A stretch of 64,000 bases of DNA, taken from the NCBI GenBank assembly GCA_050949055.1, contig JBMNFA010000007.1, positions 64,749 to 128,748 on the forward strand. The letters are read 5' to 3'. This stretch comes from Bacillota bacterium (lineage in GTDB: Bacteria; Bacillota; UBA994; UBA5500). Position 1 is the first letter of the stretch, and the number at the start of each line of letters is the position of its first letter. Position numbers and translations under genes: made by a program. The notes beneath the pieces were generated by a model. The model searched no databases and was not told the origin of the DNA. It was given only the letters and a program-made list of their open reading frames with translations. This document shows, piece after piece, positions 831-32,932 of this stretch.

Positions 831-987
831 CACGCGGGGACAGTCACCTCGTGTCAACAGGAGAAACCGCTGGCTAGATAGAAGTAGGGTAGCAGGAGAC
901 CCATGCTGCCCTATTTTCTTTGCCTGAGCATATAGGCTGAGCAGATGACCCAGACTAGATGCGTGACGCACCGATTATGGGAGGGGA

Positions 988-2379: not shown

Positions 2380-2611
2380 CGAGACAGAAGGGATGGTTCT
2401 GTAATCCATGCCGGGTGGTCAATCTGTCCCGGGATCTGGTTCTTTTTCTACCTGACAAGAAGCAAGAAGCACCAGCTGTGGCTATGAGCAGTCAGAGGCT
2501 GCCCCTTTCGCTTCGCGGCAACGCGCGAGTGTGGAGGGAGCAGCCTCTTTCTTGTTGTCCTGAGGAAGGATTAAGCCTCTCTCGCCAGTGTCTTGCGTGC
2601 CCCTCCTTTGC

Positions 2612-3643
2612 TCAATCCGGCCTGCCGTCCTCAAACAACGTCACCTGCGGCGGCTTGCCCTGCCAGGTGCCGATCACTCGCGTGTTGTGCAGCAGGATGG
2701 GATAGACGCGGGCGGCGGACCGGAACACGCAGGGCACGTGAGTGTCGCTGAGGAAGCGGCGCTTATCCTTGTAAGCCAGGAGCAGCACGTCAAAGGCAGG
2801 CAGATAGTGCTGCAGATCTTGCCTTGGTCCGGGGGAATCCAGCAACTCAGGCAACTGCTCAGCCAACAGGTATGCTTCATCAGATTGTTCTTCTAGGCGC
2901 ACAGTGGCCAACTGCGGCTGGATCTCCTTTAGTAGCTGCCGCACCACAGGCACACGAAAACCCGACCAGTAGACCACGTCAGCCAGCGTCACCGGACCGT
3001 AGCGAGCGATGAACCGACCGATCAGTCGCCTCTTGGCTGGCCAGGCAGAGTCTTGGGGCAGCGGCTGGTACCATGACGAGAAATAGACTGCACGGTTGCC
3101 CTTTTGTGGCCCGCGCACACAGTCACCTAAATAGCATAAGTCTTTCAGCAGATGGGGAAGCAAGCTATCATATGGTCTTTCTAGCCCAGCTCGTACACTA
3201 ATCTCCACATGCGTCAGTGGCTGCTCACCCAGTACATCCCGGATGCGCGGGTAGATGCGCTGTCGTACCTCGGCTAGGGGTATGGGCAGGCGTCGCTCCA
3301 GATAACGCCCCCAGCGCTGTGACCACTCTGCTTCCGTCGCGGCCTGATGATCCGGTGCGTCCGCAGCTAACACCAAATGCATGGTGCCGCGTACCGTCCA
3401 CATCCTGAGCAGCGGTCCTCCAGGTTGCACTAAACTATCCAGCTGTTCCTCGCCAACGGTGCGTGCAGCCACTGCTTGTTTGGCGGCAGCATAGTCCTGT
3501 GCTTGCACAGCCACCAGTGAGCGCACAGTCTCCTCTGCACTGCTAAACGGTTGCACCAGGCCCAGTTGGCGCAAGTTCCACCAGGCTGCCTGTGTGAGAG
3601 TAAGTGTTTGCATTGGCGAAGCCCCCCATATTACAGCGATCAA
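2612..3643 (-). CDS. Winged-helix DNA-binding domain protein, YcaQ/AlkZ-like (DUF1006) putative DNA glycosylase
   Basis: 343 aa. I recognise the family only weakly from overall composition and size; no defining motif was verified. Confidence 0.4.
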   Translation of the reverse strand: MIAVIWGASPMQTLTLTQAAWWNLRQLGLVQPFSSAEETVRSLVAVQAQDYAAAKQAVAARTVGEEQLDSLVQPGGPLLRMWTVRGTMHLVLAADAPDHQAATEAEWSQRWGRYLERRLPIPLAEVRQRIYPRIRDVLGEQPLTHVEISVRAGLERPYDSLLPHLLKDLCYLGDCVRGPQKGNRAVYFSSWYQPLPQDSAWPAKRRLIGRFIARYGPVTLADVVYWSGFRVPVVRQLLKEIQPQLATVRLEEQSDEAYLLAEQLPELLDSPGPRQDLQHYLPAFDVLLLAYKDKRRFLSDTHVPCVFRSAARVYPILLHNTRVIGTWQGKPPQVTLFEDGRPD

Positions 3644-3670: not shown

Positions 3671-4208
3671 TTAGTACACCCCTGGCAGTCGCTTTTGATA
3701 GAATACATCGCGGCTCATCCATAGGAACCTGATCCCGATGCGGCTGTAGGGATTGGTGGCCGTGCTCGCTCCCGCCTCGCCGTGGTACGTTTGCTGCCGC
3801 TCCACCTTGAGCAGGATGCTCAACAGGGATCCATCCAGGCTGGCGTGGTTCTGCATCCTGCCCTCACCCAGAGATAACAGGATTACCCCTTGGTTCTTCA
3901 GGCTGGCTTCCCCCGTCGCTGTGTCCACCGTGCCGATGCCGGTGTAACGGTCTGGGACCCAGGCCTCCACCGCTGTGTAGTAGTCGTCGTGATATTCCAC
4001 ATCCCGGACGATGACGAATCTTGCCCAGAATGATCTGGCACCGTTCAATGTCAGATGACAATAGGCCGATTGCATGTCCGACCAGGGAACGATCCCTGGA
4101 CCGCCATGGACATACAAGCTGTCCAGGAAGGCCTGCGCCGAGTTGGCTACGGTCGATATCGCTGCTACACAGACCAGCACACATGTGAGCACTAGCAGGA
4201 ATTTTCTT
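3671..4208 (-). CDS. Hypothetical secreted protein (signal peptide KFLLVLTCVLVCVAAISTVANSAQA); start codon uncertain
   Basis: The long ORF overlaps the upstream CPBP gene. A plausible start lies after the GGAGGG RBS near 4215. The N-terminus has a hydrophobic h-region with an AXA cleavage site. Confidence 0.3.
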
Positions 4209-4227
4209 TGCAGAGTGATCCCTCCCT

Positions 4228-4977
4228 CTAAGCTCCGGCCAGCGCAAGAGCCAGTACAACACTGATCAAATTGTGGGTGGCATGGGCGATCATGCCAGGG
4301 GCCAAAGACCCGGTGCGTTCGTAAAGGGCACCAAACAGCAATCCCGTGACGAAAAAGCTGATCAAGCCCAACCCATTGAAGTGCAGCACGGCAAACAGCA
4401 GAGAGCTGATGATCAGTCCCTTCTTGACGCCTACCTGCCGTCGCAACCATCCATAAAGCATGCCACGGGTAAACAGCTCTTCCATTAGCGGGGCCAGTAA
4501 CACCGCCGTGATGGCAAACAGCAGCCAGTCGATGCCTAGTCCGGCATTCGCCAAAGGGTTGTTGCTTTCTACTTGTGACAAATCAGTTCTAAGCAACATA
4601 GCTGCCAGCAGCGCTGTGGCCATTCTGATCACCACGCCAGCAAGATGCGTGCCCACCCCCCAGATGACTCCTTGCCGCCAGTGCCGCTTGAAGTCTTGTC
4701 GCCTCAGTTGCCAATAGGCGGCGTCCGGCCAAAAGCGATGATTGGAGTGGGTGCAAAACAGCGCGGCCAACACCAGAGCCTCTCCCACGGTCCGCAGCGA
4801 TGCACTGTCGTCCCTCCAGCGCACCCCGATGCTCAACAACAAGATCGCCGCGGTAATGCTGTATCCAAAGTAAGCGCCAACCAAGCGCCACAAGTCTGCA
4901 CCTCTCCAGTGTACCTCTCGTTGATCCAGGGGACCTGGCTGGGAAAATAGCACGATTTCCTTCCCCAGTATCCTCAT
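4228..4977 (-). CDS. CPBP family intramembrane metalloprotease (CAAX protease / Abi family)
   Basis: It is a multi-pass membrane protein carrying the EELFTRG (EExxxR) motif, the FAVLHF (FxxxH) motif and the HATHN (HxxxN) motif. Confidence 0.7.
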   Translation of the reverse strand: MRILGKEIVLFSQPGPLDQREVHWRGADLWRLVGAYFGYSITAAILLLSIGVRWRDDSASLRTVGEALVLAALFCTHSNHRFWPDAAYWQLRRQDFKRHWRQGVIWGVGTHLAGVVIRMATALLAAMLLRTDLSQVESNNPLANAGLGIDWLLFAITAVLLAPLMEELFTRGMLYGWLRRQVGVKKGLIISSLLFAVLHFNGLGLISFFVTGLLFGALYERTGSLAPGMIAHATHNLISVVLALALAGA

Positions 4978-5260
4978 CGTTGCACCTCTCTTTCTCTAAC
5001 AGCATCTCGTGAAGGATCATTCCAAACGAAGAGATGGGATGCCGTTCGAGCTAGGTCCTTTGACAAAGTCCTTTTCTCTACTCACCCAACTGCTTCCTGC
5101 CTGGCGCATTCGCTTACCTTTCATCTGATTTGTCACTTACCTAATCATACGCTAGACAGCTGTCATCAGTTGCAGCGAAGTCCCAGCGTCCCACGCAGGT
5201 AAGCCCCTGCCAGGTGGCGAATCGAATATAGGATCGCAACTTTGCAGAGGAGGGCAGTGA

Positions 5261-6385
5261 ATGCTCACTTGTTTACATATATCAGACCTACATCTGGGCT
5301 GGACCGCGGGTTTCCTGGCGGACAAAGCCGAACAGTTCAGCCGTCAGCGCGATGGGCTGCTGCGCCGCATCTGCCAATGGGTTAACCAGACTGACGAGCA
5401 AATTGATCTGGTGCTGATTGTGGGAGACCTCTTCGACAGCCACCGACCTGACCCGGCTTTGGTGGAAGCGGTGATGGCCGACCTGCGCTCCCTGACTGCA
5501 GCTGGCAGGACAGTGGTCACCGTTCCCGGCAACCACGATGAGATCACCTATCACGATTCGGTCTACCGCCGCTTTCAGGACCGCTGGCCGGGCTACTTGG
5601 TCACAAACCCCATGCCCCAGCCTCCGCTGCAACTGACTGTTGCCGCAGAAACAGTCTATGTCTACAGCGTCGCCTACACCGGCGGACTGACCAAAGCGAC
5701 TGATTATCTTCAGCCCTATCCCAGGGTGGCAGCCGAAGGGATACATATCGGTGCTTTCCACGGCTCCCTGGATTGGGCAGCCGGGGAGAGGGGGCTGCCG
5801 CTTAAGAGCGATGCCCTCGCCGCTGCCGGCTACGACTACGTCGCCCTGGGCCATTTTCACCAGCCCAGCCGGCTGCTGAAAGGCAGGACTACCATGGTCT
5901 ATTCCGGGATGATCGAGAGCAAAGGCTTTAGCGACATCGGTTGCGGGCAGTTGGCCCTGGTGGACTTAGGCCAGTCGCAGGCCACTGTGCGGTCGCTGCC
6001 CTGGGCGGTGCCCCTGAGCCGGGTGGAGCAGGTGGACGTCAGCCTCTGTGACAGTCAGGAGCAGTTGGATCAGTTGATTCAATCCTGGGCGGATGACCAG
6101 CTGCTGCTACGGGTGGAGCTGGTCGGCACCGCCGAATGGCTGCTGTATGGGGAGCAGCTTTGGGGCAGACATCAGGGGCAGTTTTATCATCTGGAGATCG
6201 TGGATGACAGCCTGTACTTAGGGGAAGGTCTGCTGGCCAGCTGGGCCGATGAGGCGACGGTGAGAGGTCAATATGTGCGTCAGTTGCTGGCAGAGCTTGA
6301 CCAGGCCAGGGACCAACGCTCACGGCAGGTGATACAGCTGGCACTGCGGCGCGGCATCGCCGCTTTCGCGGCAAGGGGTGAGTGA
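5261..6385 (+). CDS. Metallophosphoesterase, SbcD/Mre11-like DNA repair exonuclease (YhaO-like)
   Basis: The calcineurin-like motifs LHISDLHLG, GDLFD, GNHD and GHFH are all present. Length 374 aa. Confidence 0.7.
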   Translation: MLTCLHISDLHLGWTAGFLADKAEQFSRQRDGLLRRICQWVNQTDEQIDLVLIVGDLFDSHRPDPALVEAVMADLRSLTAAGRTVVTVPGNHDEITYHDSVYRRFQDRWPGYLVTNPMPQPPLQLTVAAETVYVYSVAYTGGLTKATDYLQPYPRVAAEGIHIGAFHGSLDWAAGERGLPLKSDALAAAGYDYVALGHFHQPSRLLKGRTTMVYSGMIESKGFSDIGCGQLALVDLGQSQATVRSLPWAVPLSRVEQVDVSLCDSQEQLDQLIQSWADDQLLLRVELVGTAEWLLYGEQLWGRHQGQFYHLEIVDDSLYLGEGLLASWADEATVRGQYVRQLLAELDQARDQRSRQVIQLALRRGIAAFAARGE

Positions 6386-6386
6386 T

Positions 6387-8741
6387 ATGGGCCAAGTCAG
6401 TTGGGATCGGTTGACCCTGGATGGTTTCGGGCGCTACCAGCGAGCGATCAGCATCGATTTCGCCCCCGGCCTGACGGTACTGGTAGGGCCAAACGAGAGT
6501 GGCAAGACCACGCTGATTGCCGGTCTGACGGCGGTGTTGTTCGGACTGCCGGTGAATCAAGACCCCGCTCAGTTCGGGCAGACCCGTTGGCGGAACTGGC
6601 AGCAGCCAACCGCTTTTCAAGGGGAGCTCCACTTTACCGCCCACTCACAGCAGTGGCATCTGGTACGAGACTTTTCCACTAACCGCATCAGCCTGAAGCA
6701 GCGACTCGGCGATAGCTGGCGAGAGGTGGCGCAGGGGGTGGACAACCCTGGCGCTCGCCGCCCGCTGCAACGCTACCATCAGCAACTGCGCAGTCTGATC
6801 GGAATCGAGCGGCGGGAGTTGTTCCAGTCCACTTTCTGCCTGACCCAGCCGCTGCCCACCCCCAACAATTTGGAGGAGGCGGTGCAGGTGTTGCTTTCCG
6901 GCACCGATCGGCGGGTGGAGCAGGTGCAGGTGATTCTAGATCAACAGGTGCGAGCGATCACCCGCTATTACGGGCGGGAACTGGGCCTGACCAGGGATGG
7001 CAACAAGAATCGGCAGTTGGAGGAGCTGCAGTTGCAGATCGAACAGCTGCGGCAACGGATTGCTGATGGCCGCCAGACAGCTGATGGGTTGCAGCTGGTG
7101 CAGGCCGATTTAAGGCGGGCAGAGAAGCAACAGGCAGAGCTGAAAGAGCAGCTAAGGTTAACAGAACGCTCCCACCAAGCCTGGGGGACTTGGCGCTCTT
7201 ACCAGGAAAGATATCGCCAACAGCTAGCAGAACAGCAGCGCTTAGCCACTGCAGTAGAGACGGCTGGCGAGCTATCCAAGCAGCTGCAGCAGTTTGAAGG
7301 CGGCGGTCTGGAACAGGCCGAGCCGGAACAGGTTGCCCTGCTGATGGATTACGAGCGAAAGCAAAGGGCGTTTGAGCTGCGGCAGACGCAGGCAGAACAG
7401 GCCCATCAGGCTTTGGTAGAGCGGGAGCAAACCTATCAGCGGGCCAAGTGCGAGTGGCAACAACGGTTTGGCCCGTTGCAGCAGGATCCGGCGAATCTAC
7501 TCTGGGCTATCGACCAGCATTTGGCCGGTCGGCGTAGCCGAGGGCCGCGGCAGCGTGCTGGCTCGTCATCAGCGCAAGTTATCCCTTGGCTGCTGGCAGC
7601 CGGTGCGGCGCTTGCCACTTTTGGTGTTTGGGGCAAAGATGCTGGAAGTTTGGGTTTCTGGGGCAGCTTGTTGGCAGCTGTGCTGGCTTGGGGGTTGGGC
7701 TATGCCGCCACCAAGTCAGCCGGGAGCCGGGAGCAGCAGCCAGGAACTCTTAGTCAGCTGGGTAAGCTAGGCGAGTTGCCACTGCCTGACTTGTTGCACG
7801 CCCGTGCCGCCCTGGAGCGCCTGATGGCGGTCCAAGCGGCACGGCCGGCAGAAGCCGAGTTGAGGGCATCCCAAGCGGAACTGCGGCAGGCGCAGCTGCA
7901 GCTAGACTATCTGAGACAGGCGCGCGATAGCTGCCGTCAGGCTTTGCAGCAGCTGCTGTCCTTGTTTGGTGTCAGTACAGTTGCCGAGCTGCAGACCAAA
8001 GCGCTGCATCTGCAAAACAGCATCGCAGCCACCCAAATCAGGTGGCAGGAGTTGATCGAAAGCCATCCCGGGCTGCCCGCGATGGAGATGGGGGACCAGC
8101 AGAGGATCGATGAGCTGTATGCAGCCAGCGAGCAGCGCATAGCCGCCCTGCGTCGTGCGGAGGAAGAGGCCCGCCAACGGGTGGAGCAGCTATTGCGTCA
8201 GCAAGCCGCTCTGGAAGGGCGGCAACCGCTAAATATCGCCCAGGCAGAAGAGCAATTGCAGCTGTTGCTTGCCCGGCGCGATCAATTGCAGTTGGAGGTG
8301 GAGGCGCTGGGCTTGGCATACCGGCAATTGGCAGCAGCCAAGGAGAGCTATCAGTTGACCTACCGGGAAAGGCTGCAAACACAGGTGAGCGCCTATATGC
8401 AAGGGATCACCAGGCAGGAGGATCGGCAGGTGGAGCTGAGCCCGGATTTCCAGGTGACCGTGTTCGACGGTACCGGCCAAGCCATCGTGCCGGCCCAGCT
8501 CAGCCAGGGAGTCAGGGATCAGCTCTACTTCGCCCTGCGGTTGGGCATCGCTGACCTGTTGGCAGACCAATCCCGGCTACCGCTAATCCTGGATGACCCC
8601 TTTGTGAACAGCGACGCCGAGCGGCTGCAGCGTATCCGGCAGATACTGGTTGCTGCCGCTAGGCAGCGGCAGATCCTGCTGTTTACGCACCAGCAGCAGC
8701 TGGCAGACTGGGGCGATGTGTCCTATCGTCTGCCGTTCTGA
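6387..8741 (+). CDS. AAA/ABC-type ATPase with long coiled coil, SbcC/Rad50-like (YhaN-like); two predicted TM helices mid-protein
   Basis: Walker A GPNESGKTT lies at the N-terminus and Walker B/D-loop LILDDPFVNSD at the C-terminus. The middle is Q/E/L/R-rich coiled coil, with a hydrophobic segment VIPWLLAAGAALATFGVW...LLAAVLAWGLGYAA. The start overlaps the yhaO-like stop. Confidence 0.65.
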   Translation: MGQVSWDRLTLDGFGRYQRAISIDFAPGLTVLVGPNESGKTTLIAGLTAVLFGLPVNQDPAQFGQTRWRNWQQPTAFQGELHFTAHSQQWHLVRDFSTNRISLKQRLGDSWREVAQGVDNPGARRPLQRYHQQLRSLIGIERRELFQSTFCLTQPLPTPNNLEEAVQVLLSGTDRRVEQVQVILDQQVRAITRYYGRELGLTRDGNKNRQLEELQLQIEQLRQRIADGRQTADGLQLVQADLRRAEKQQAELKEQLRLTERSHQAWGTWRSYQERYRQQLAEQQRLATAVETAGELSKQLQQFEGGGLEQAEPEQVALLMDYERKQRAFELRQTQAEQAHQALVEREQTYQRAKCEWQQRFGPLQQDPANLLWAIDQHLAGRRSRGPRQRAGSSSAQVIPWLLAAGAALATFGVWGKDAGSLGFWGSLLAAVLAWGLGYAATKSAGSREQQPGTLSQLGKLGELPLPDLLHARAALERLMAVQAARPAEAELRASQAELRQAQLQLDYLRQARDSCRQALQQLLSLFGVSTVAELQTKALHLQNSIAATQIRWQELIESHPGLPAMEMGDQQRIDELYAASEQRIAALRRAEEEARQRVEQLLRQQAALEGRQPLNIAQAEEQLQLLLARRDQLQLEVEALGLAYRQLAAAKESYQLTYRERLQTQVSAYMQGITRQEDRQVELSPDFQVTVFDGTGQAIVPAQLSQGVRDQLYFALRLGIADLLADQSRLPLILDDPFVNSDAERLQRIRQILVAAARQRQILLFTHQQQLADWGDVSYRLPF

Positions 8742-8783
8742 GTGCCCATCGCCCCATTCAGTGTGCTTTTCTGGCCATAATAG

Positions 8784-8826
8784 TTTGAGCGCAGCAAAGG
8801 CTTTTCGTTCCTTCGCTGCGCTCAAA
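8784..8826. terminator. Large hairpin (17-bp stem) between convergent yhaN-like and cysteine desulfurase genes; putative bidirectional terminator
   Basis: TTTGAGCGCAGCAAAGG..CCTTCGCTGCGCTCAAA inverted repeat. Confidence 0.45.
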
Positions 8827-8897
8827 TTGATCGAAAATGGGCTCAGCACAACCCGGAACTGGGGGGGGCAGCGCCCGTTCCGCGCGGCTGCTCATGC

Positions 8898-10040
8898 CTA
8901 CCGGGCACTCAGTTCCGCCAGCGCCCTAATCGCCCAGTCGACATCTTCTGCCGTGTTGCTGTATCCGACGCTTAACCGCACCGTGCCGGCTGGAAAAGTG
9001 CCGATGGCCTGATGGGCCAGCGGAGCGCAGTGCAGGCCCGGCCGACTGATGATGCCGTAATCATCTTCCAGCGCTACCGACAGGTCTGCAGCATCCCAGC
9101 CAGCCAGGTTGACGGAGACCACTCCGACGCCCTGCTGACCGCCGGGCCCGTAGACCGTGACGCCCGGAATCTGCTGCAGGCCCGCGCGCAGGCGCTCCGT
9201 TAACCCCAGCTCATGCTTGCTCACCTGTTTCAGCCCTTGCCGCAGCAACCATTCCACCCCGGCGGCCAGGCCGGCCAAGCCAGGGGTGTTCGGGGTGCCT
9301 GCTTCCAGCCGATCGGGCATGAACTCAGGGTGCCATACCTGATGGGACGCGCTGCCGGTACCGCCCACCCGCCAAAAGGCCAACTCCACGTCTGGGCGCA
9401 CATAGAGCAGGCCCGTGCCTTGCGGGCCAAACAAACACTTGTGTCCGGGAGCGGCCAGGCAGGCCGGTCGCAACGCCTGCACGTCGATGGGCATGGCCCC
9501 CAGGGTCTGGGATGCGTCCAGCAGCAACTTGATGCCGTGCGACTGGCAGAGATCGCTGACAGCCTGCACGTCCAGCAGAGCGCCGGTGACGTTAGAGGCG
9601 TGGCTGACAGCAATCATCGCCGTGTTGTTCCGGATCGCCTGCTCAAACTGCTCCACCCGCACGGTCAAGCCGTCGGGTGCTTCCAACACGGTCAACTCGA
9701 TGCTGCTTTGTTTGGCCAAATGCGAGAGGGGACGCAGGACCGAGTTATGGTCAAAACAGGTGGTGATCACATGATCGCCCGGCCTCACCAGGCCGTTGAT
9801 GGCCATGTTCAAGGCGTCGGTCGCATTCAGGGTAAAGGCGACACTGGCTGAGCTCGGCGCATTGAGCAACTGGCTGACCAGATGACGGGCCTGGCTGACC
9901 AAGCGGGCGGCATGCAGGGACAGGCGATGGCCGGAGCGGCCAGGGTTGCCACCGTGTTCTAAGGCGTCCAGCACTGCCCGCTTGACCTCTTCCGGCTTCG
10001 GCCAGGAGGTGGCCGCGTGATCCAGGTAGACTATAGACAC
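8898..10040 (-). CDS. Class V aminotransferase-fold PLP enzyme: cysteine desulfurase / selenocysteine lyase family
   Basis: The PLP-lysine motif APGHKCLFGPQGTG and the active-site Cys loop GLHCAP are both present. Length 380 aa. It is the last gene of the yedE-yedF-DUF3343 operon. Confidence 0.75.
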   Translation of the reverse strand: MSIVYLDHAATSWPKPEEVKRAVLDALEHGGNPGRSGHRLSLHAARLVSQARHLVSQLLNAPSSASVAFTLNATDALNMAINGLVRPGDHVITTCFDHNSVLRPLSHLAKQSSIELTVLEAPDGLTVRVEQFEQAIRNNTAMIAVSHASNVTGALLDVQAVSDLCQSHGIKLLLDASQTLGAMPIDVQALRPACLAAPGHKCLFGPQGTGLLYVRPDVELAFWRVGGTGSASHQVWHPEFMPDRLEAGTPNTPGLAGLAAGVEWLLRQGLKQVSKHELGLTERLRAGLQQIPGVTVYGPGGQQGVGVVSVNLAGWDAADLSVALEDDYGIISRPGLHCAPLAHQAIGTFPAGTVRLSVGYSNTAEDVDWAIRALAELSAR

Positions 10041-10112
10041 TCAAATTCCCTCCCAGGAACGCAGAATCAGCCTGCAGAACGCCGGCCCTGCCAGTAGGGC
10101 CGGCGCTGCCGA

Positions 10113-10337
10113 CTACAGCGGGCCGTAAATCTCCTCATGCTCTAGGTGGCAGCTTGCCAAGGCATCCAACACCGATTGAGAATTCTCTGCCACCACCTCG
10201 GCGCAGATGCCGCAGGAAGAGCTGAACTGTCGTGGAACCGGACGCAAGCGGCAAGAAAACCCGGCAGCCGTCAACTCGCGCTCGGCTTCCATCGCCCAGT
10301 AGACGGAGTGAAAGGTGACCACATACTTGTGTTGCAT
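10113..10337 (-). CDS. DUF3343 family small protein (putative Se/S carrier, commonly next to yedE/yedF)
   Basis: 74 aa, fitting the VTFHS...FSCRL.PVPRQFSSSCG pattern of DUF3343. Confidence 0.6.
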   Translation of the reverse strand: MQHKYVVTFHSVYWAMEAERELTAAGFSCRLRPVPRQFSSSCGICAEVVAENSQSVLDALASCHLEHEEIYGPL

Positions 10338-10340
10338 CTG

Positions 10341-10559
10341 TTAAGGCCTGACTGACACGGCCCAGCTGCCATCCGCCTGCTGCTCCACCGTCGGTTGCTT
10401 CTTGGTGACGGTGAGCAGGAAACGAGTCACATTTTCCTTGGCCACCGCTGTATCCACCAACACGGTCAACTGTTCTGTTCCGGCTTGTGCCAAGCCTTGC
10501 CGCGCCATGATCACCGGTTCCGGGCAGGAACGGCCCCGGGCATCAACTACCTTGCTCAT
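10341..10559 (-). CDS. yedF: TusA-like sulfurtransferase (YedF family)
   Basis: 72 aa with the CPxP motif (RGRSCPEPV). Confidence 0.75.
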   Translation of the reverse strand: MSKVVDARGRSCPEPVIMARQGLAQAGTEQLTVLVDTAVAKENVTRFLLTVTKKQPTVEQQADGSWAVSVRP

Positions 10560-11644
10560 CAGGCTTCCACCTCCTTGGACGAATGCTGTCTCCTCGCTAC
10601 CCGCAAGGTCTCACGCGTACCCAGCCCTAAAACTAACAGTAATACCAGCAGGCCCCAACTAGCTATCTGGCCATTTACTGGCACGCCGTTGCCGCTGGCC
10701 GCCAATCCGAAATTGTGGGCTATAGCAGCGCCCATGATCAGCCCCAGCACTGTGCTCATCGCATCCACGTCGCCTTCGCCAGCCAAGATCAATTGCCGCA
10801 ACGGGCAGCCTCCCAGCAGGGCAGCTCCCAACCCAGTCACCAGCATGCCGAGGAAGTTGTAGAGGTGGTTGCTGTGGGCAATCGGCTGCCCGGCGAAGCC
10901 CAGATTGAAGTTGCCCATCGCCAGGTTGAGCAGCAGGGCTGCCGCCAAAATGCCGATAAACCCGCTGATCAGGTGGCTATCCCTAAACAGGATCGCGTCT
11001 CGGATGCCGCCCACCATGCACAGACGGGTGCGCTGTGCGGCATAGCCGACCAGCAGCCCTGCCCCCAGAGAGATCAACACCGGGGCGGAAAGGGCACCAG
11101 GGCCTTCGCTGCTGCGGAAGATGAAGCCAGGAGCTACCAACGCCAGAATCACCAGGCCAACGGCAAACAGTGGCGCCGCCAGCCCAGCCGCTGGCGGTTG
11201 CGGATAGCTCCGCCCCAAAGTAAAACCGCTCCTGAGGCAGACCACTCCCAGAACGATGCCGGCGGTGAAGCCAGCCAGCCCGACCAGTGCATTCAAATCC
11301 CCGCCAGCCAACCTCAGCACCATTCTCAATGGACAACCGAGGAAGAGCAGGGCGCCGATGCTGACCATCATTCCCAGGAAAAAGCGCAGAACAGGGCTGG
11401 AGCCGCCCCGCGGACGGAACTCCTTGGCGAGTATGGCAGCCAGGAACGAACCAAGGATGAATCCTGGGATCTCCAGGCGAATGTTTTGCACCACCGCTGC
11501 TCGATGAAAGCCCAGCGCGCCGCTGATGTCCCGGAGGAAACAGACCACACAGACGCCCATGTTCTTGGGGTTGCCGAAGTAGACCAGCAGGGCCCCCAGC
11601 GCCCCCACCAACAACCCGACGGCGATAATCCTCTTTCTCTCCAC
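10559..11644 (-). CDS. yedE: YeeE/YedE family inner-membrane transporter (thiosulfate/selenium-related)
   Basis: 361 aa polytopic membrane protein with two YeeE/YedE repeats. Its stop overlaps the yedF start. Confidence 0.8.
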   Translation of the reverse strand: MERKRIIAVGLLVGALGALLVYFGNPKNMGVCVVCFLRDISGALGFHRAAVVQNIRLEIPGFILGSFLAAILAKEFRPRGGSSPVLRFFLGMMVSIGALLFLGCPLRMVLRLAGGDLNALVGLAGFTAGIVLGVVCLRSGFTLGRSYPQPPAAGLAAPLFAVGLVILALVAPGFIFRSSEGPGALSAPVLISLGAGLLVGYAAQRTRLCMVGGIRDAILFRDSHLISGFIGILAAALLLNLAMGNFNLGFAGQPIAHSNHLYNFLGMLVTGLGAALLGGCPLRQLILAGEGDVDAMSTVLGLIMGAAIAHNFGLAASGNGVPVNGQIASWGLLVLLLVLGLGTRETLRVARRQHSSKEVEA

Positions 11645-11828
11645 TCCTATGTACCTTCCCTTCCGAGTCCTTCGTCGTGCACGACCTAGGGTTCTGTATT
11701 TCAGTCAAATTATATGTCATTTTTATCTTTGTTACAACTATCACTTATATAAGAGTATTTCATGTCAACCGATTGGACCACAACTGGGACTTATAGCCCC
11801 CTTCCGGCCAGACTTGCCTGCGTCCTTA

Positions 11829-11873
11829 TTGACATATGCCCGTAATTGCGCATATACTGGTTATGGGCATATG
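11829..11873 (+). promoter_or_regulatory. Sigma-A-like promoter (TTGACA-18-TATACT) for the mrp operon, bracketed by a 9-bp inverted repeat CATATGCCC / GGGCATATG
   Basis: -35 at 11829..11834 and -10 at 11853..11858; the inverted repeat spans 11833..11841 and 11865..11873. Confidence 0.4.
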
Positions 11874-11905
11874 ACCAATACATATCTGGGAGGCGCAGTG
11901 ATTAG

Positions 11906-12676
11906 ATGGGATTGAACAGTTTCTTGGAGCCGGGGAATCAGTTGAGCCAGATCAAACACGTGATAGCTGTGATGAGCGGCAAAGGAGGGGTCGGCAAGTC
12001 GTCAGTGGCCGCCTTGCTGGCGTTGGGGTTGCAGCGATTGGGAAAGCAGGCAGGTATTCTGGATGCTGATATTACAGGCCCCAGCGTGCCGACGCTGCTC
12101 GGCGTCCACGAGCGACCACAGTCCAGCGAACTAGGCCTGTTTCCTGTTGAGAGCGCCAGCGGTGTGAAGGTGATCAGTCTCAACCTTTTGCTGGACCAGG
12201 AGGACCAACCAGTCATTTGGAGAGGCCCGCTGATCGCTGGCGCGGTGAAGCAGTTTTGGAACGACGTGGTTTGGGGCGATCTGGACTATCTGGTGGTCGA
12301 CTTGCCGCCCGGGACCGGCGACGCCCCGTTGACTGTGCTGCAGTCACTGCCGCTAACGGGTGTGGTTATCGTCAGCTCGCCGCAGGACCTGGCCGTGATG
12401 GTGGTGCGCAAAGCGATCAACATGGCCCGTAGTATGGATGTGCCGATTCTTGGCTTGGTTGAAAATATGAGTTATGTCAAGTGCCAGCACTGCCAAGAGA
12501 CCTTTGAGATCTTTGGCCCTAGTCAGGGAGAAGCCGTAGCTAAAGCAGCAGGCATCCCCTTCCTGGGGAGGATGCCGCTGGAGCCGGCCATGCGCTCTTT
12601 GGCCGATTCGGGCAGGTTGCACGAGTATCGCAACTCGGTCGTGGAAGAGATGGTTCAGGCATTAGTGCAGGAGTAA
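11906..12676 (+). CDS. apbC: Mrp/NBP35 (ApbC) family Fe-S cluster carrier ATPase
   Basis: The deviant Walker A motif SGKGGVGKSS and a CxxC motif (CQHC) are present. Confidence 0.85.
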   Translation: MGLNSFLEPGNQLSQIKHVIAVMSGKGGVGKSSVAALLALGLQRLGKQAGILDADITGPSVPTLLGVHERPQSSELGLFPVESASGVKVISLNLLLDQEDQPVIWRGPLIAGAVKQFWNDVVWGDLDYLVVDLPPGTGDAPLTVLQSLPLTGVVIVSSPQDLAVMVVRKAINMARSMDVPILGLVENMSYVKCQHCQETFEIFGPSQGEAVAKAAGIPFLGRMPLEPAMRSLADSGRLHEYRNSVVEEMVQALVQE

Positions 12677-12707
12677 CCCAGATAATGCAGCGGGAGGAGG
12701 TGAAGTG

Positions 12708-12929
12708 ATGCCCAGATTCGACGGTTCTGGCCCCGCCGGGCGAGGTCCGATGACCGGTTGGGGGCGGGGTAATTGCATTGTCCCTGTACGCGGCTGGGCT
12801 GCCCGGGCTGGGGTCCAGCGTGTGCCCAGCCGGCGGATCGTGCGGGGCTTTCGGAGACCCCCCCTCAGGGAAGAGATTGCCTCGCTGCGAAACCAGATCA
12901 ACCGGTCGCGCAGACAGTTGGAAAAGTGA
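12708..12929 (+). CDS. DUF5320-like small protein (MPRFDGSGPAGRGPMTGWGRGNC... plus C-terminal coiled coil)
   Basis: The N-terminal Gly/Pro-rich signature and the helical tail resemble small proteins that co-occur with DUF134 and NifX-like genes. Confidence 0.45.
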   Translation: MPRFDGSGPAGRGPMTGWGRGNCIVPVRGWAARAGVQRVPSRRIVRGFRRPPLREEIASLRNQINRSRRQLEK

Positions 12930-12992
12930 GGTGGCCACACGGCTAAAGCTCCGCGCAGCTTTGGCCATCATTCTCGTGGGAGGTGTCAGGTT

Positions 12993-13349
12993 ATGCGAAT
13001 TTGTATTACCAGCAAAGGCAAGGAACTCACCGATCAGTTGGACGAGCGCTTTGGACGCTGCTCATATCTCTTAGTGGTGGACACAAGCAGTGGAGCTGTG
13101 GAATCGCTGAAGAATCCCGGGGTGTTGGTAGATCATGGAGCGGCCATTGCTGCTGCTCAGCGCGTATTGGATGCTCAGGTAGACGTGCTGTTGACTGGGA
13201 ATCTGGGGCCGAACGCGGAAGGGATGCTGGAATCGCACAACATGACTGTATACCAAGCACGGAACTGTAGTGTGCAGGAAGCTTTGGCAGCCTATCAAGC
13301 CGGGCAGCTGAAGCAGCTGCTGTCGGTGCGAACCGGTGCTGAGCAATGA
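12993..13349 (+). CDS. NifX/NafY/NifB-C-terminal-like dinitrogenase FeMo-cofactor-binding domain protein
   Basis: 118 aa with an MRICITSKG...FGRC start typical of the NifX-like fold. Confidence 0.65.
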   Translation: MRICITSKGKELTDQLDERFGRCSYLLVVDTSSGAVESLKNPGVLVDHGAAIAAAQRVLDAQVDVLLTGNLGPNAEGMLESHNMTVYQARNCSVQEALAAYQAGQLKQLLSVRTGAEQ

Positions 13350-14176
13350 AAGTCGCAGTCCTCAGTGGCAAGGGTGGCACCGGCAAGACTACGGTGGCGG
13401 TCAATTTGGCTCACGTCATGCGCTGGCGCTACATGGATTGCGATACTGAAGAGCCGAACGGCTGGGCATTTCTGCAGCCGAAGCTGCTGCAGTCAGAAGC
13501 CGTCCGGATTCCCAATCCGGTTGTCGATCAGGAGTTATGTACCCGCTGTGGTTCATGCGCGCAGGCCTGCCAGTTTCAAGCTCTTGGTGTGACCGCAAAA
13601 GGAGTGCTGATCTTTTCCCAGTTGTGTCACGGTTGCGGTCTCTGTTCACTGGTCTGCCCTGAGCAGGCTATTGATGAACAGCCTAGGGAAATTGGCCGAA
13701 TCGACCATGGCCTTGGCCCAAACGGCGAGTGTTGGCAGGGGGTGATGAATGTGGGGGAGTTGGCTGGCGCACGCATTATTGAGCAGATGTTGCGCCAGCT
13801 AACAGGCACCACCCCTCTGATCATGGACTGTGCGCCAGGCACGTCCTGCAACGTGATTGCCGTCGCCAAGCACGCCGACTTCGCCCTCCTGGTCACCGAG
13901 GCCACTCCTTTTGGTGCGCATGATTTGGAGGCCTCCATCAAGTTGCTGCAGTCGCTAGGCCTGCCGGGAGCGATTGTGGTCAACCGCTCCGTCGAGGACG
14001 CTGGTCTGATCTCAGATGTGGCTGACCATTATCAGCTGCCAATTATTGCCCGGTTACCTTTCAGTCGCCATGCGGCCGCATTGACTGCCGCTGGCAAACT
14101 GCTACAGGGCGAGGACTTCCCTGAGATGTTTGCCCAGCTCGGAGATCGCATTCGGGGGTTGATCAGATGCAACTAG
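13346..14176 (+). CDS. MinD/ParA-type P-loop ATPase with 2x[4Fe-4S] ferredoxin insert
   Basis: Walker A motif LSGKGGTGKTT, plus CTRCGSCAQACQ and CHGCGLCSLVCPEQA. Confidence 0.7.
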   Translation: MKVAVLSGKGGTGKTTVAVNLAHVMRWRYMDCDTEEPNGWAFLQPKLLQSEAVRIPNPVVDQELCTRCGSCAQACQFQALGVTAKGVLIFSQLCHGCGLCSLVCPEQAIDEQPREIGRIDHGLGPNGECWQGVMNVGELAGARIIEQMLRQLTGTTPLIMDCAPGTSCNVIAVAKHADFALLVTEATPFGAHDLEASIKLLQSLGLPGAIVVNRSVEDAGLISDVADHYQLPIIARLPFSRHAAALTAAGKLLQGEDFPEMFAQLGDRIRGLIRCN

Positions 14177-15030
14177 TGGTATTGAGTGGCAAGGGAGGTA
14201 CCGGCAAGACGACAGTGGCAGCAGCGATAACCAGGTTGGCCGCTTGTCCTCTGGCCGTCGACTGCGATGTGGATGCGGCCAATCTGCACCTTTTGTTGGG
14301 CATGCGGGATTTATCCAGTGAAGATTTTTCCGGCTCCAAGGTGGCAGAACTGGACGATAGCCGGTGTGTGCGCTGCAACCGTTGTGGCAGCGTCTGCCGC
14401 TTCGACGCCATTGAGTATGGGATGGTAGATCAGTTGAGCTGTGAGGGATGTGGCGCCTGTGTCTACGCCTGTCCGTATGACGCCCTGGCGCTGGTAGATC
14501 AGACCATCGGGCAGGTGTTTCTCACCAGTACCACATGGGGACATCTCAGCCGGGCCGAGATGTATCCTGGGGCAGATGGATCCGGAAAGCTGGTCACCCG
14601 CGTGCGGGAGCAAGCCGCGGAAATTGCTGACCGCGCGTCAAGTCCGACCATCTTGGATGGCCCGCCTGGTATCGGCTGCCCTGTGATCGCCACCCTCACC
14701 GGTTGTGACGCCGCTCTCTTGGTCCTAGAACCCAGTTACTCCAGTCAACATGACTTCTTGCGTTTGCTGCAACTGCTTCACAAATTTGACATCAAGACGT
14801 ACGCCTGTATCAACCGTCACGACCTAAGTCCCGATAACTGTCGAGAGTTGCAGCAGGTTTGTGAGCAGAAAGGAGTTCCCATCGTCGGTTTGATTCCCTT
14901 CGATCCGCTGGTAATGGAGGCGCACCGGCAGCTGAAGTCAATTCTGGACTTTGAAGACAGCCCTGCTGCTGAAGCCATCCGCCAGATTTGGGCTAATCTC
15001 AGCAAAATGATAGGAGTTGATCAACAGTGA
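14167..15030 (+). CDS. Second MinD/ParA-type P-loop ATPase with 2x[4Fe-4S] ferredoxin insert
   Basis: Motifs LSGKGGTGKTT, CVRCNRCGSVCR and CEGCGACVYACP. It overlaps the previous gene. Confidence 0.7.
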   Translation: MQLVVLSGKGGTGKTTVAAAITRLAACPLAVDCDVDAANLHLLLGMRDLSSEDFSGSKVAELDDSRCVRCNRCGSVCRFDAIEYGMVDQLSCEGCGACVYACPYDALALVDQTIGQVFLTSTTWGHLSRAEMYPGADGSGKLVTRVREQAAEIADRASSPTILDGPPGIGCPVIATLTGCDAALLVLEPSYSSQHDFLRLLQLLHKFDIKTYACINRHDLSPDNCRELQQVCEQKGVPIVGLIPFDPLVMEAHRQLKSILDFEDSPAAEAIRQIWANLSKMIGVDQQ

Positions 15031-15386
15031 TCGTGGCGCTAGCCTTAGAGAAAGATGAAAAAATCGCCCAGCATTTCGGACGTTGCCCCACCTTCCGCTT
15101 GGTGAGGATTGAGGGGGGGCGTCAAGTGGCCGTGCATGATCTCCCCAGTCCGCGGCACCAACCCGGATTGTTGCCGCGAGTGCTGAAGGAGTATGGCGTT
15201 GATGTGGTGGTTGCCGGGGGTATGGGTGGCTCCGCCCAGGGTCTGTTCCAGCAGTACGGCATCGAAACAGTGGTTGGGGTTGCAGGAGATGGTCAGTCAA
15301 TAATCGAACAGTTTGTTAGGGGGCAGCTTCGCTCCACCGGTGAGGTATGTCGCGAACATAGCTACGAAGATGAATGTGGGAAGTAG
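15027..15386 (+). CDS. NifX-like FeMo-cofactor-binding domain protein (second copy)
   Basis: 119 aa with an IAQHFGRCPTF motif; the start overlaps the upstream stop. Confidence 0.55.
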   Translation: MIVALALEKDEKIAQHFGRCPTFRLVRIEGGRQVAVHDLPSPRHQPGLLPRVLKEYGVDVVVAGGMGGSAQGLFQQYGIETVVGVAGDGQSIIEQFVRGQLRSTGEVCREHSYEDECGK

Positions 15387-15413
15387 CCCCGGAGAAATGG
15401 AGGTAGATATTAA

Positions 15414-15794
15414 ATGAAACAACCGATCGCCAGCGAATTGGCACCGGCAGCTGTTGGACCTTATTCTCAGGCTGTAAAGACAGGCAATCTGCTATTTGTC
15501 TCTGGCACCCTACCCATCGACCCTAAGACCGGCGAGCTGGCCCCGGGAGGCATTGAGGGACAGACCCGCATGGTGTTTGAGAACATGCGCTGTGTTCTGG
15601 CTGCAGCCGGAGCTGACTTCTCCAATTTGGTTAAGACTACCGTCTACTTAGCGGATATCGCAGATTTCGCCGCCATGAATGCCATCTATGCCGAATATGT
15701 CCCCAGCCCCTTCCCCGCCCGGGCTGCTTTCCAGGTCTCCGCTCTGCCTAAGGGAGCAATGGTGGAAATTGAGGCCGTGGTTGAGTTATCATAA
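15414..15794 (+). CDS. ridA: RidA/YjgF family reactive-intermediate deaminase
   Basis: 126 aa with the [10 protein letters not shown]...VEIEAVV signature. Confidence 0.85.
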
Positions 15795-15877
15795 TATAAG
15801 GAGAGGTTGATAGTCTGCACGCGACTGTCGCTCGATCCATATCCGCTGTTCTTTGAACATGCATGAGGAGGTGACGC

Positions 15878-16264
15878 ATGCCTAGACCGCCGATACACCG
15901 CATGGTAGAACGTGAACCGATCTGTACTGTCTTCAAGCCAGCGGGCAGGCCGATGGCCGGGATGGAAGAAGTGGTGGTCACGGTTGAAGGAATCGAGGCT
16001 ATCAGGTTAAAAGACCTGTTGGGACTCGACCAGGAAGAGTGCGCCGAATGCATGCATGTTTCCCGAGCCACATTCCAACGCCTGTTGACCGTCGCCCGCG
16101 AGGGAGTTGCCCGGGCGATCGTCGAGGGCAGGCCCTTGCGTATCCAAGGTGGGCACTACCGCTTGCGAGGCGCGTGCCAGGCGCTGCGCGGCCCTGGCCG
16201 CAGAAGAGCCCGCTGCCGGCGGCAATGCTATCAGACGCTGGATGGCTCGCGAGAGTCAGAATAG
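15878..16264 (+). CDS. DUF134 domain protein (predicted DNA-binding, sigma-70 region-4-like HTH)
   Basis: MPRPP..R....EP....FKP.G.P.....EVVVTVEGIEAIRLKDLLGLDQEECAECMHVSRATFQRLL matches the DUF134 consensus. Confidence 0.7.
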   Translation: MPRPPIHRMVEREPICTVFKPAGRPMAGMEEVVVTVEGIEAIRLKDLLGLDQEECAECMHVSRATFQRLLTVAREGVARAIVEGRPLRIQGGHYRLRGACQALRGPGRRRARCRRQCYQTLDGSRESE

Positions 16265-18039: not shown

Positions 18040-18290
18040 GAAAGACACCAAAACTAGGCGATGAACGAAGCCAGTAGTCAGTGCGCTGGGTGCAAAGAGA
18101 GTCGGTGGGTGGTGTGAACCGATGTCGGCGTGCGGATGAATTACCTTCGGGAGCTTTCCTGACGAAGGGAAGTAGTCAGGGACGGAACCTTTCCGTTATC
18201 AAGTCTGAGGTGGGTGGGCTACTGGTCCACCAACCAGGGTGGTACCGCGAGCTAAGAACTCGTCCCTGCATGGGGACGGGTTCTTTTTTG
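18040..18290 (+). promoter_or_regulatory. T-box riboswitch leader (tyrosine specifier UAC) with terminator/antiterminator
   Basis: AGAGAG/GGTGG stem I elements lie near 18085..18105, and the specifier GAAUUACC sits at 18139..18146. The T-box sequence AGGGTGGTACCGCG is at 18235..18249. A terminator hairpin at 18261..18279 is followed by a T-run at 18281..18288. Confidence 0.75.
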
Positions 18291-18318
18291 ACACGAGGGG
18301 ACTGTCCCCTCCTGTCAC
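18290..18318. repeat. GGGGACWGTCCCC-core palindromic element inside tyrS leader (after T-box terminator)
   Basis: GACACGAGGGGACTGTCCCCTCCTGTCAC. Confidence 0.6.
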
Positions 18319-19829: not shown

Positions 19830-20375
19830 TTGATATTCAGTAGAATGGAGGATAGTCAAATGAGCAAGATTGATTTGGTAATCGGTGAAGTGCCCACCTC
19901 CGCAGGCACCTTTGGTGCGCTGGTATCACCCCAGGGCTTGGCCAGACTGACCTTTCCCGGCGAGCCCCTAGAAGTATGCGAGCAGTTTGCTCGTCGCTGG
20001 TGGCCGCAGGGACAGATCGTCCCTGACGACGGTCGCCTGCAGCCGATTGTAGAGCAGTTGCAGGCCTACTTCCAAGGTAAATTGCGCACATTCAGCTTAC
20101 CTCTGCACATGCAGGGTACCCCCTTTCAGCAGCAGGTATGGGCCGCCTTGCAGCAAGTTCCCTTCGGCCAGACCCGCTCTTATGCGGACCTCGCCGCAAG
20201 CATCGGAAACCCAAGAGCAGTGAGGGCAGTGGGCAGGGCCAATGGTGCCAACCCGGTGCCAGTTATTGTTCCCTGCCACCGCATCATCGGCAAGAGTGGC
20301 AAGCTGGTAGGCTATGCTGGCGGCCTGGAAATCAAACAGATGTTGCTCGAGTTAGAAGGGATAACGCTGGCGTAA
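19830..20375 (+). CDS. ogt: Methylated-DNA--protein-cysteine methyltransferase
   Basis: Active site PCHRIIG. Confidence 0.85.
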   Translation: MIFSRMEDSQMSKIDLVIGEVPTSAGTFGALVSPQGLARLTFPGEPLEVCEQFARRWWPQGQIVPDDGRLQPIVEQLQAYFQGKLRTFSLPLHMQGTPFQQQVWAALQQVPFGQTRSYADLAASIGNPRAVRAVGRANGANPVPVIVPCHRIIGKSGKLVGYAGGLEIKQMLLELEGITLA

Positions 20376-30134: not shown

Positions 30135-30608
30135 CTAGCCGTCTTCCTTGGCCATTGCCTCCAGAATACGCAGGATTTCTTGCTCATTGCGCCGAAATGC
30201 CAGGTCATTGACCACCAGATGGCGAACAATGCCCCGCTTGTCAATAATAAAGGTGGCCCGTGCAGCGACGGACTGCTCTGGCAGCAATACACCGTAGGCT
30301 GCGCTCACCTGGCGTTTCATGTCGCTGAGCAACGGGAAGGTGACCTGCAGATTCTCCGCAAATGCTTTATGGGATGGGACACTGTCTACACTGATGCCCA
30401 GCACCTGGGCACTCAACTTGCTCAGTTGCGGGAGGATTTCCTGGCAAGCTGGTAGCTCAGATGTTCAGACCGGGGTCCAATCCAAGGGATAGAATAAAAG
30501 GACCACGCTTTGCTGGCCACGAAAGCTGCTCAGCGTTACCGCTTGATCGTTTTGATCCCGCAGAGTGAAGTCCGGTGCCTGTTTGCCGACAAATACGCCT
30601 TCTAGCAC
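30135..30608 (-). CDS. Peroxiredoxin (Prx1/AhpC-like, ~157 aa) with in-frame TGA (30465..30467) at the peroxidatic-Cys position: candidate selenocysteine peroxiredoxin
   Basis: Manual translation of the minus strand gives MLEGVFVGKQAPDFTLRDQNDQAVTLSSFRGQQSVVLLFYPLDWTPV-[TGA]-TSELPACQEILPQLSKLSAQVLGISVDSVPSHKAF...ATFIIDKRGIVRHLVVNDLAFRRNEQEILRILEAMAKEDG. The TGA falls exactly where FTFVCPTE carries the peroxidatic Cys. A GGAGGTGA RBS precedes the GTG start. A candidate hairpin (CAGCUUGC..GCAAGUUG) at 30414..30451 lies 16 nt downstream of the UGA in the mRNA. The ORF track shows only the part downstream of the TGA (30135..30416). Confidence 0.7.
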
Positions 30609-32907: not shown

Positions 32908-32932
32908 AGACAATGCCGCTGTGCTGGTCGGA

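Follow-up and report, generated by a model that had tools for sequence, protein, structure and literature searches.

Selenium-specific uptake and the safe delivery of selenium to selenophosphate synthetase are an unsolved question in bacteria. The clustering of genes for YedE, a SirA-like protein, DUF3343 and the selenocysteine (Sec) lyase family was already published from comparative genomics by Lin et al. in 2015 (PMC5322559), and in Slackia heliotrinireducens the YedE, SirA-like and DUF3343 genes were found to be consecutive (Shel_25130-25120-25110), together with Shel_25440 (PMC5322559). DUF3343 was reported in the same study to cluster with YedF and Sec lyase and was considered a possible selenium or sulfur chaperone (PMC5322559), and the domain has been renamed 'Se_S_carrier' by Pfam. 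Here a locus with these four families is described from a 64,000-nucleotide (nt) stretch of a Bacillota bacterium (assembly GCA_050949055.1, contig JBMNFA010000007.1, positions 64,749 to 128,748 of the forward strand), which is called the window and whose positions are numbered from its first letter. The four genes probably form one operon for selenium acquisition and intracellular selenium trafficking, expressed from a conserved sigma-70 promoter at 11709-11737. The locus is a further example of a gene cluster type already described, with nothing conceptually new beyond the 2015 proposal, and it stands out only by an enzyme gene that is, less commonly, co-directional with the others and by a hairpin specific to the species. 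Its compactness, with four candidate components in one apparent operon, makes it a convenient set for heterologous reconstitution.

Parts of the locus resemble systems that have been characterized individually. YeeD is an essential partner of the transporter YeeE, with which it makes contact, and the cysteine of its CPxP motif binds and decomposes thiosulfate (PMC11073785). The YedE/YedF pair of E. coli and the FdhT/FdhU pair of C. jejuni have been linked to the biogenesis of selenium-dependent formate dehydrogenase. To our knowledge, neither DUF3343 nor a pyridoxal phosphate (PLP) enzyme has been reported in the operons of these two pairs. In the IscS-TusA, SufS-SufE and CsdA-CsdE relays, a PLP enzyme hands a cysteine-bound persulfide (or perselenide) to a small single-cysteine acceptor encoded nearby. 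E. faecalis SclA, the only characterized member of the TIGR01977 family, prefers selenocysteine, and cysteine acts on it as a competitive inhibitor; the family was named after E. faecalis EF2568, and TIGR01977 itself carries only the name 'cysteine desulfurase family protein'. Curated NCBIfam models exist for YedE, the selenium LysR, TIGR01977 and SclA.

Gene content and organization of the locus

The four genes lie on the minus strand. The first, yedE (10559..11644), encodes a polytopic membrane protein of 361 amino acids (aa), a putative selenium transporter of the TIGR04112 type. It is followed by a tusA/sirA-like gene (10341..10559) for a 72-aa single-domain putative sulfur/selenium carrier with a CPxP motif, by the DUF3343 (Se_S_carrier) gene (10113..10337) for a 74-aa protein with one invariant cysteine, C42, and by a gene (8898..10040) for a 380-aa class-V PLP enzyme of the TIGR01977 (EF2568/SclA-type) cysteine desulfurase/selenocysteine lyase family. 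The yedE stop and the tusA-like start have one base in common, in TGATG (a 1-nt overlap), a gap of 3 nt separates the tusA-like stop from the ATG of the DUF3343 gene, and the DUF3343 stop is followed, after a spacer of 72 nt, by the GTG of the PLP enzyme gene. A Shine-Dalgarno element, GGGAGGG, was read from the sequence on the minus strand at 10048..10054, 7 nt 5' of this GTG, and the purine-rich columns of this ribosome-binding site were kept in the alignment of relatives. The original prediction had described four minus-strand genes, tightly packed or overlapping, for a YeeE/YedE transporter, a TusA-like protein with CPxP, DUF3343 and a class-V PLP enzyme; all open reading frames (ORFs) were present at the coordinates claimed, and the family calls were borne out by Pfam and NCBIfam scans.

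A sigma-70-type promoter, TTGTAA-17 nt-TATAAT, was predicted by a consensus scan at 11709..11737 on the minus strand, and its -35 and -10 blocks were invariant in every relative aligned (loci L001-L004 and L083-L086). The proposal of a single operon was based on the co-directional genes, on junctions of 1-nt overlap, 3 nt and 72 nt, and on this one conserved promoter-like site. By reading of the sequence, no internal terminator with a U-run was found within the four-gene locus.

Conservation of the module in related loci

YedE was scanned against one genome per bacterial or archaeal species, which gave 425 confirmed relatives; the best 80 were kept with 10-kb flanks, and ORFs were called and clustered in these 80 related loci plus the window (81 loci). 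The closest YedE relatives among the 80 loci came from uncultured Bacillota metagenome-assembled genomes (MAGs), at 71-73% identity. YedE itself was recovered in 78 of the 81 loci. The TusA-like protein of about 70 aa was present in 66 loci, always directly 3' of yedE, and DUF3343 in 59, directly 3' of the TusA-like gene. The TIGR01977-type enzyme was found in 62 loci (cluster representative 452.7 bits), its gene being divergent upstream in 53 and co-directional downstream, as in the window, in eight. The next most frequent family after these four reached 24 loci only, and the association of the four families is far beyond chance.

Genes of selenium metabolism were repeatedly found with the module. 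A LysR regulator cluster occurred in 24 of the 81 loci, and its representative, at 327 bits, passed NF040786 (cutoff 250), the model named 'selenium metabolism-associated LysR'. SelD (TIGR00476, 363 bits) was encoded in 13 loci, mostly immediately 3' of DUF3343, and an XdhC-like maturation factor in five. The original prediction had proposed a search of the gene neighborhood for selD in relatives, and selD did adjoin the module in 13 of the 80 related loci. Judged from its neighborhoods, the module is a widely conserved unit that stands repeatedly beside bona fide selenium genes.

Compared with the clusters of Lin et al., the locus has the same four families and the same order of the trio, and the role proposed for both is to transport and traffic selenium. 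It differs in that the enzyme gene is co-directional and 3' of DUF3343, as it is in only 8 of 62 related loci, the usual position being divergent upstream, and in that no gene for SelD, LysR_Se or a two-domain YedF lies nearby.

The same four-gene cluster, with an identical DUF3343, was also seen at 684-3505 of a Logan contig (SRR31061296, locus L090), where YedE was called 25 aa longer, the genes 3' of the enzyme differ and sbcC is absent. This suggests a strain-level rearrangement at the enzyme end of the operon.

Protein families and functional residues

YedE matched PF04143, Sulf_transp, with 61.9 bits (cutoff 27) and TIGR04112, 'YedE family putative selenium transporter', with 459.5 bits (cutoff 200) over profile positions 2-335 of 337. 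It fell below both models of the thiosulfate transporter TsuA, with partial matches only (34.1 bits against 400 for NF052577 and 24.1 against 645 for NF041049), and below the E. coli/Campylobacter-type YedE/FdhT model NF033796 (19.8 bits against 350). Because the TsuA and YedE/FdhT models failed, the protein was assigned to the TIGR04112 type specifically. Five cysteines, Cys32, Cys35, Cys104, Cys209 and Cys280, were 100% conserved in 78 orthologues, with two GCP motifs included. In a phmmer alignment with S. thermophila YeeE (6LEO), C209, C280 and C104 faced the cysteines of the 'RICFNSAFRD', 'GGCASG' and 'GGCNIG' segments, respectively, and YedE could be aligned also to the YeeE-YeeD fusion structures 8K1R and 8J4C in the PDB.

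The locus can be compared with two kinds of transporter pair. Like YeeE/YeeD (TsuA/TsuB; 6LEO, 8K1R, 8J4C), it encodes a Sulf_transp protein with relay cysteines and an adjacent TusA-like CPxP partner of about 75 aa. Unlike that pair, in which neither a DUF3343 nor a PLP partner is present, it has an additional invariant CxxC (C32, C35) in YedE, whose similarity to YeeE is distant (E = 1e-8 over half the protein) and which was not recognized by the TsuA models. For the mechanism of the YedE/TusA-like pair, YeeE/YeeD offers the best model. The E. coli YedE/YedF and C. jejuni FdhT/FdhU pairs likewise combine a YedE-type membrane protein with an adjacent small protein of the TusA family, and differ in that they belong to another YedE subfamily, as the score with NF033796 indicates.

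The TusA-like protein matched PF01206 with 47 bits (cutoff 28.6) over profile positions 1-68 of 70. Its CPxP motif is C12-P13-E14-P15, of which C12, P13 and P15 were invariant in 66 orthologues. It failed the YedF model TIGR03527 (50.6 bits against 110), of which only positions 1-65 of 194 were covered. According to Lin et al. 2015, YedF consists of a SirA-like part and a DsrE-like part with a CGXC motif (PMC5322559). The 72-aa gene is not yedF in this sense, because it encodes a bare SirA/TusA domain without the DsrE-like half, YedF being about 194 aa long; by domain content, its product corresponds to the 'SirA-like' partner of YedE in the nomenclature of Lin et al. It had originally been called YedF with CPxP, of which the TusA-like domain and the motif stand and the name does not, and the YedF (TIGR03527) label should not be carried over to this small gene in annotation. 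A split of a fused YedF into the TusA-like and DUF3343 proteins was also considered and rejected: in none of the 78 loci with a TusA hit are the two genes fused, and the second domain of true YedF is DsrE-like and not DUF3343.

The DUF3343 protein matched PF11823, Se_S_carrier, with 67.2 bits (cutoff 25) over profile positions 1-68 of 69. In 59 orthologues C42 was invariant, and P33, P35, R36 and S40 were at least 97% conserved; identity to the distant relatives L001, L003, L081, L083 and L085 was 61-77%. An AlphaFold2 model built from eight close homologues (predicted local distance difference test, 91.5) gave a beta-alpha-beta-beta-alpha-beta fold, in which the long loop between beta2 and beta3 ends with C42. 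No relative was found in the PDB by sequence, nor by fold with Foldseek at E <= 0.001. The Foldseek matches were generic ferredoxin-like folds (PII-like, ACT, HMA-like TM0320) with a best E of 7.5e-3, and no specific fold kinship is claimed. Compared with the IscS-TusA, SufS-SufE and CsdA-CsdE relays, the candidate acceptors of this locus are the TusA-like protein and DUF3343, the latter without detectable kinship to SufE or CsdE, and the element transferred is presumed to be selenium. A protein identical to DUF3343 of the window (P0001) has already been deposited from a Bacillota MAG.

The PLP enzyme matched PF00266 with 283 bits (cutoff 21.5) and TIGR01977 with 429.7 bits (cutoff 377) over all profile positions, 1-376 of 376. 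It failed the models of the housekeeping desulfurases SufS (234.8 against 475), IscS (131.8 against 548), NifS (161.8 against 531) and CsdA (174.1 against 607). The original description as a NifS/CsdA-like lyase holds for the class-V desulfurase/selenocysteine-lyase character, which TIGR01977 supports, and not for the two proteins named, and in annotation the enzyme is better labeled as TIGR01977/Sec-lyase family than as a housekeeping cysteine desulfurase. H98, N99, K201 of the HK motif and C338 of RPGLHCA were invariant or nearly so in 62 yedE-linked orthologues, K201 being 100% and C338 95% conserved. The closest solved relatives in the PDB are group-II SufS/CsdB enzymes, and IscS, SufS and CsdA structures are among the PDB matches. 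With E. faecalis SclA (EF2568; NF040779) the enzyme has in common the TIGR01977 family, the group-II RXGXHCA motif, the PLP lysine and the catalytic histidine, and SclA is itself encoded among selenium-metabolism genes. Unlike the enzyme of the window, SclA has its genetic links with selD and with a molybdenum hydroxylase that depends on selenium, and not with yedE.

Selenium use indicated by the window

At 30135..30608 on the minus strand, 19 kb from the operon, lies a peroxiredoxin (AhpC/TSA) gene whose reading frame has a TGA (30465-30467) as the codon of the peroxidatic residue. When U was replaced by C, the product matched AhpC-TSA with 147.7 bits over profile positions 1-123 of 124, a match that spans the TGA. 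PxxxTxxU is a listed Sec-peroxiredoxin motif in a 2026 review (PMC13188914), and the local sequence here, P-LDW-T-PV-U, is this motif. The sequence 3' of the UGA folds into a hairpin of -20.4 kcal/mol (z = -2.3). The gene is likely a selenoprotein gene, which standard gene callers would split or truncate, and from its sequence the organism appears to decode Sec and make a selenoprotein. The candidate Sec-peroxiredoxin 19 kb away, which the original prediction had mentioned as fitting, is real. When the window was searched for other genes interrupted by TGA, the peroxiredoxin was the only convincing case. Exact-product look-ups for YedE and two edge genes, made to extend the context towards selD, returned no record, and the contigs with an identical DUF3343 protein were at most 10.4 kb long and all inside the range of the window.

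Proposed pathway

The selenium reading is supported because YedE and the enzyme fall into TIGR04112 and TIGR01977, because the four families travel together, because SelD or a LysR cluster with a selenium-type representative accompanies them in some loci, and because a likely Sec-peroxiredoxin is encoded. Gene order and coupling, family membership, the catalytic and carrier residues and the conserved clustering of the four genes are demonstrated, as is their proximity, in some relatives, to selD and to the LysR cluster with that representative; the substrate, the direction and the order of transfer given below are what we infer. The earlier idea of an uptake-and-delivery module for selenium (or sulfur) is upheld as far as sequence evidence goes.

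In the proposed mechanism, YedE would act as a YeeE/TsuA-like channel with five invariant cysteines and move a selenium species across the membrane, as the analogy with TsuA and its family membership suggest. The direction is most likely inward, since the characterized relative imports its substrate and since yedE mRNA rises on selenium starvation in M. maripaludis, where an increase of 5.3 log2-fold was reported (PMC11097638). The translationally coupled TusA-like protein would dock on the cytoplasmic face of YedE and take selenium on its CPxP cysteine, as YeeD/TsuB does with thiosulfate. DUF3343, with its ferredoxin-like fold and its cysteine at the end of a long loop, might serve as a second small carrier, and this is the weakest step. 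The TIGR01977 enzyme, a relative of SclA with a presumed preference for selenocysteine, would mobilize selenium from the free amino acid as an enzyme-bound Cys338-S-Se intermediate and would hand it to the carriers, so that imported and recycled selenium would both reach SelD without free selenide. The chemistry of a cysteine-bound S-Se intermediate is established for this class of PLP enzymes.

A more specific version, which we offer tentatively and regard as rather doubtful, is that DUF3343 might accept selenium specifically from the TIGR01977 lyase and so do the work of SufE/CsdE with an unrelated, ferredoxin-like fold, and that with YedE and the TusA-like protein it might form a complete closed relay through which selenium, whether imported or recycled, would arrive at SelD with no selenide set free. 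If so, the single-strand four-gene layout would be a minimal self-contained version suited to reconstitution, and it could become the first pathway for selenium-specific uptake and trafficking to be proven by experiment in a prokaryote.

Several points weigh against a selenium operon of four genes. As of 2024, a selenium-specific transporter had been proven in no organism, transport of a selenium compound was unproven for every member of the TIGR04112 family, and an M. maripaludis strain deleted for yedE had no clear phenotype with respect to selenium (PMC11097638). Lin et al. also weighed an exporter role for YedE and could not define a selenium-specific subfamily of DUF3343 (PMC5322559). The PLP enzyme scored under the SclA cutoff of NF040779 (342.5 bits against 525), yet this was its second-best model, and Asn99, invariant in the yedE-linked enzymes, is aligned with H100 of SclA. 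Mutants of SclA H100 had their kinetics shifted less than 2-fold, and no sequence determinant is established for bacterial selenocysteine lyases; from its sequence, a preference of the enzyme for Sec over Cys is not established. That the enzyme gene is transcribed together with the other three is something we infer. No selD, selA, selB or tRNA gene, tRNA-Sec included, was found within the 64-kb window, and no tRNA-Sec in the 60 related loci scanned.

The control region and the divergent operon

The predicted 5' untranslated region (UTR) of yedE contains a perfect 12-nt palindrome, GTCGTGCACGAC, at 11674..11685 on the minus strand, found by an inverted-repeat scan. Its core, YGTGCACG, was kept in two independent closer lineages (L083/L084 and L085/L086) in which the flanking UTR bases diverge, and in the alignment the palindrome was absent from L001-L004. 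These patterns make the palindrome a candidate operator. No selenium-type LysR gene lies beside the operon in this clade. A riboswitch or leader RNA 5' of yedE was also considered and rejected: Rfam at its gathering threshold gave only the tyrS T-box in the window, and a permissive threshold applied to 8700-12000 gave only chance-level matches (E > 2). An all-vs-all blastn of the 300 nt upstream of yedE from 74 loci gave many matches, most of which, going by their position, were put down to conservation of the first coding part (5' end) of the divergent enzyme gene and not to non-coding conservation.

Divergent from yedE, an ORP-like operon occupies 11906-16264 on the plus strand. It encodes an MrpORP-type ParA/NUBPL ATPase, DUF5320 (12705-12929), a Nitro_FeMo-Co (NifX-like) protein, two CbiA+4Fe-4S ATPases, a second NifX-like protein, RidA and DUF134. 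Its promoter consists of TTGACA (11829-11834) and TATACT (11853-11858) and is flanked by an inverted repeat, CATATGCCC (11865-11873) and GGGCATATG (11833-11841), with the two arms 23 nt apart. The repeat was kept in L083, L085 and L086. It probably serves as an operator, perhaps one bound by the DUF134 protein of the same operon.

The hairpin in the spacer

The spacer between DUF3343 and the enzyme gene contains a GC-rich hairpin, GCCGGCCCT-ACTGGC-AGGGCCGGC, at 10081..10104 on the minus strand, with a perfect stem of 9 bp, extendable to about 12 bp, and a loop of 6 nt. It begins 8 nt past the DUF3343 stop and is followed by GTTCTGCAGG, so that there is no U-run, and it ends 40 nt before the enzyme gene, which has its own strong ribosome-binding site. 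The original prediction of a hairpin without a U-run between the two genes was correct in these respects, whereas the position given, 10057-10080, was off by 24 nt. As a REP-like (repetitive extragenic palindromic) repeat the hairpin was rejected, the pattern occurring once in the window even with three mismatches allowed.

Alternative explanations

The module might handle sulfur, YedE importing thiosulfate or another sulfur compound, the TusA-like and DUF3343 proteins carrying persulfide, and the PLP desulfurase feeding thio-cofactor or Fe-S synthesis. YedE does belong to the Sulf_transp superfamily (PF04143) and retains cysteines used by TsuA; TusA proteins are classical persulfide carriers, and the only characterized pair of a transporter and a TusA-like protein handles thiosulfate (PMC11073785); DUF3343 is found also in organisms without SelD (Lin et al. 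2015, PMC5322559); and the TIGR01977 name speaks merely of a cysteine desulfurase family. A sulfur role is nevertheless unlikely, given that the TsuA models were missed widely (34 against 400 and 24 against 645) and TIGR04112 was passed at more than twice its cutoff, that the enzyme fails the SufS, IscS, NifS and CsdA models, and that related loci have selD and the LysR cluster with the selenium-type representative beside the module, and that a likely Sec-type peroxiredoxin is encoded here. Selenium could also be handled in reverse, with YedE exporting an excess and the carriers and lyase detoxifying rather than supplying SelD. This was raised by Lin et al. on the grounds that sulfate and other transporters already admit selenium (PMC5322559), and it would fit the unimpaired selenium use of the M. 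maripaludis yedE deletion (PMC11097638). There is little chance of it in our view: in the same organism the yedE transcript goes up on selenium starvation and not on excess (PMC11097638), the structurally related YeeE/YeeD pair is an importer (PMC11073785), and selD directly after the carriers in 13 related loci fits delivery to selenophosphate synthesis.

Two further explanations were weighed. The hairpin at 10081-10104 could be an internal attenuator or RNA-processing site that uncouples the enzyme from the three upstream genes, for which its perfect GC-rich stem and its placement between the DUF3343 stop and a gene with a strong ribosome-binding site would speak. Such a role, which had been part of the original prediction, found no supporting evidence and is improbable. 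Besides the missing U-run, the fold in its 96-nt context was unexceptional (z = -1.6; 12 of 200 shuffles folded as well), and 50 short inverted repeats that are as long or longer occur in the window. The hairpin-bearing stretch was missing in all five more distant relatives compared (L001, L003, L081, L083 and L085), where the spacers are 13-38 nt long; L004 was aligned too, and its DUF3343-enzyme junction is identical to that of L003. Conservation of the element was ruled out by these alignments, and in the same-species contigs L087-L090 the whole spacer is identical, which leaves no covariation to assess. Because it lacks a U-run, folds unexceptionally and is absent in the distant relatives, the hairpin is regarded as a peculiarity of this lineage for which nothing indicates a function, although a modest role in mRNA stability or partial termination is conceivable. 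The other explanation ties the module to the divergent ORP-like operon, to which it would supply sulfur or selenium for a metal-cluster protein. The two operons have a common control region of 261 nt, the divergent arrangement is retained in the closer relatives L083-L088, and ORP-type genes lie within 5-7 kb in the distant loci L051, L054 and L063. Against these stand L001, L003 and L004, which lack the ORP genes and have pepA immediately next to yedE, and the distant loci as a whole, of which only 3 of 80 have ORP-type genes within 10 kb; in the closer relatives general synteny is common (pepA, tyrS, ogt, sbcCD), so that the adjacency is explained by common descent. A functional link is highly improbable and was rejected on the loci that lack the adjacency, and the adjacency is treated as inherited synteny.

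Other features of the window

The T-box leader found by Rfam lies at 18052-18270 (131 bits against a gathering score of 93), 5' of tyrS (18337-19581), with a terminator hairpin at 18289-18317, and fits the Bacillota origin of the window. Just past ogt (19830-20375), at 20384-20441, two perfect 28-nt inverted arms are separated by a gap of 2 nt. This hairpin is much longer than any other in the window and looks like a strong terminator or a recombination or insertion site. Four ORFs had no Pfam match at E <= 1e-5, namely 3671-4450 (259 aa), 4589-5020 (143 aa), 32834-33835 (333 aa) and 36704-38158 (484 aa). A 449-aa protein encoded at 40019-41368 has an unusual architecture, with an N-terminal RNase H domain (132 bits) and a C-terminal beta-propeller (lactonase/YncE-like). 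The window is rich in DNA-repair genes, which include those for an AlkZ-like protein (2612-3643), SbcCD (5261-8741), Ogt, a DinG-like helicase (22006-23988), MPG (38551-39180), EndoIII (39330-40022), AddAB (49802-56967) and a second SbcC-like protein (58191-62090).

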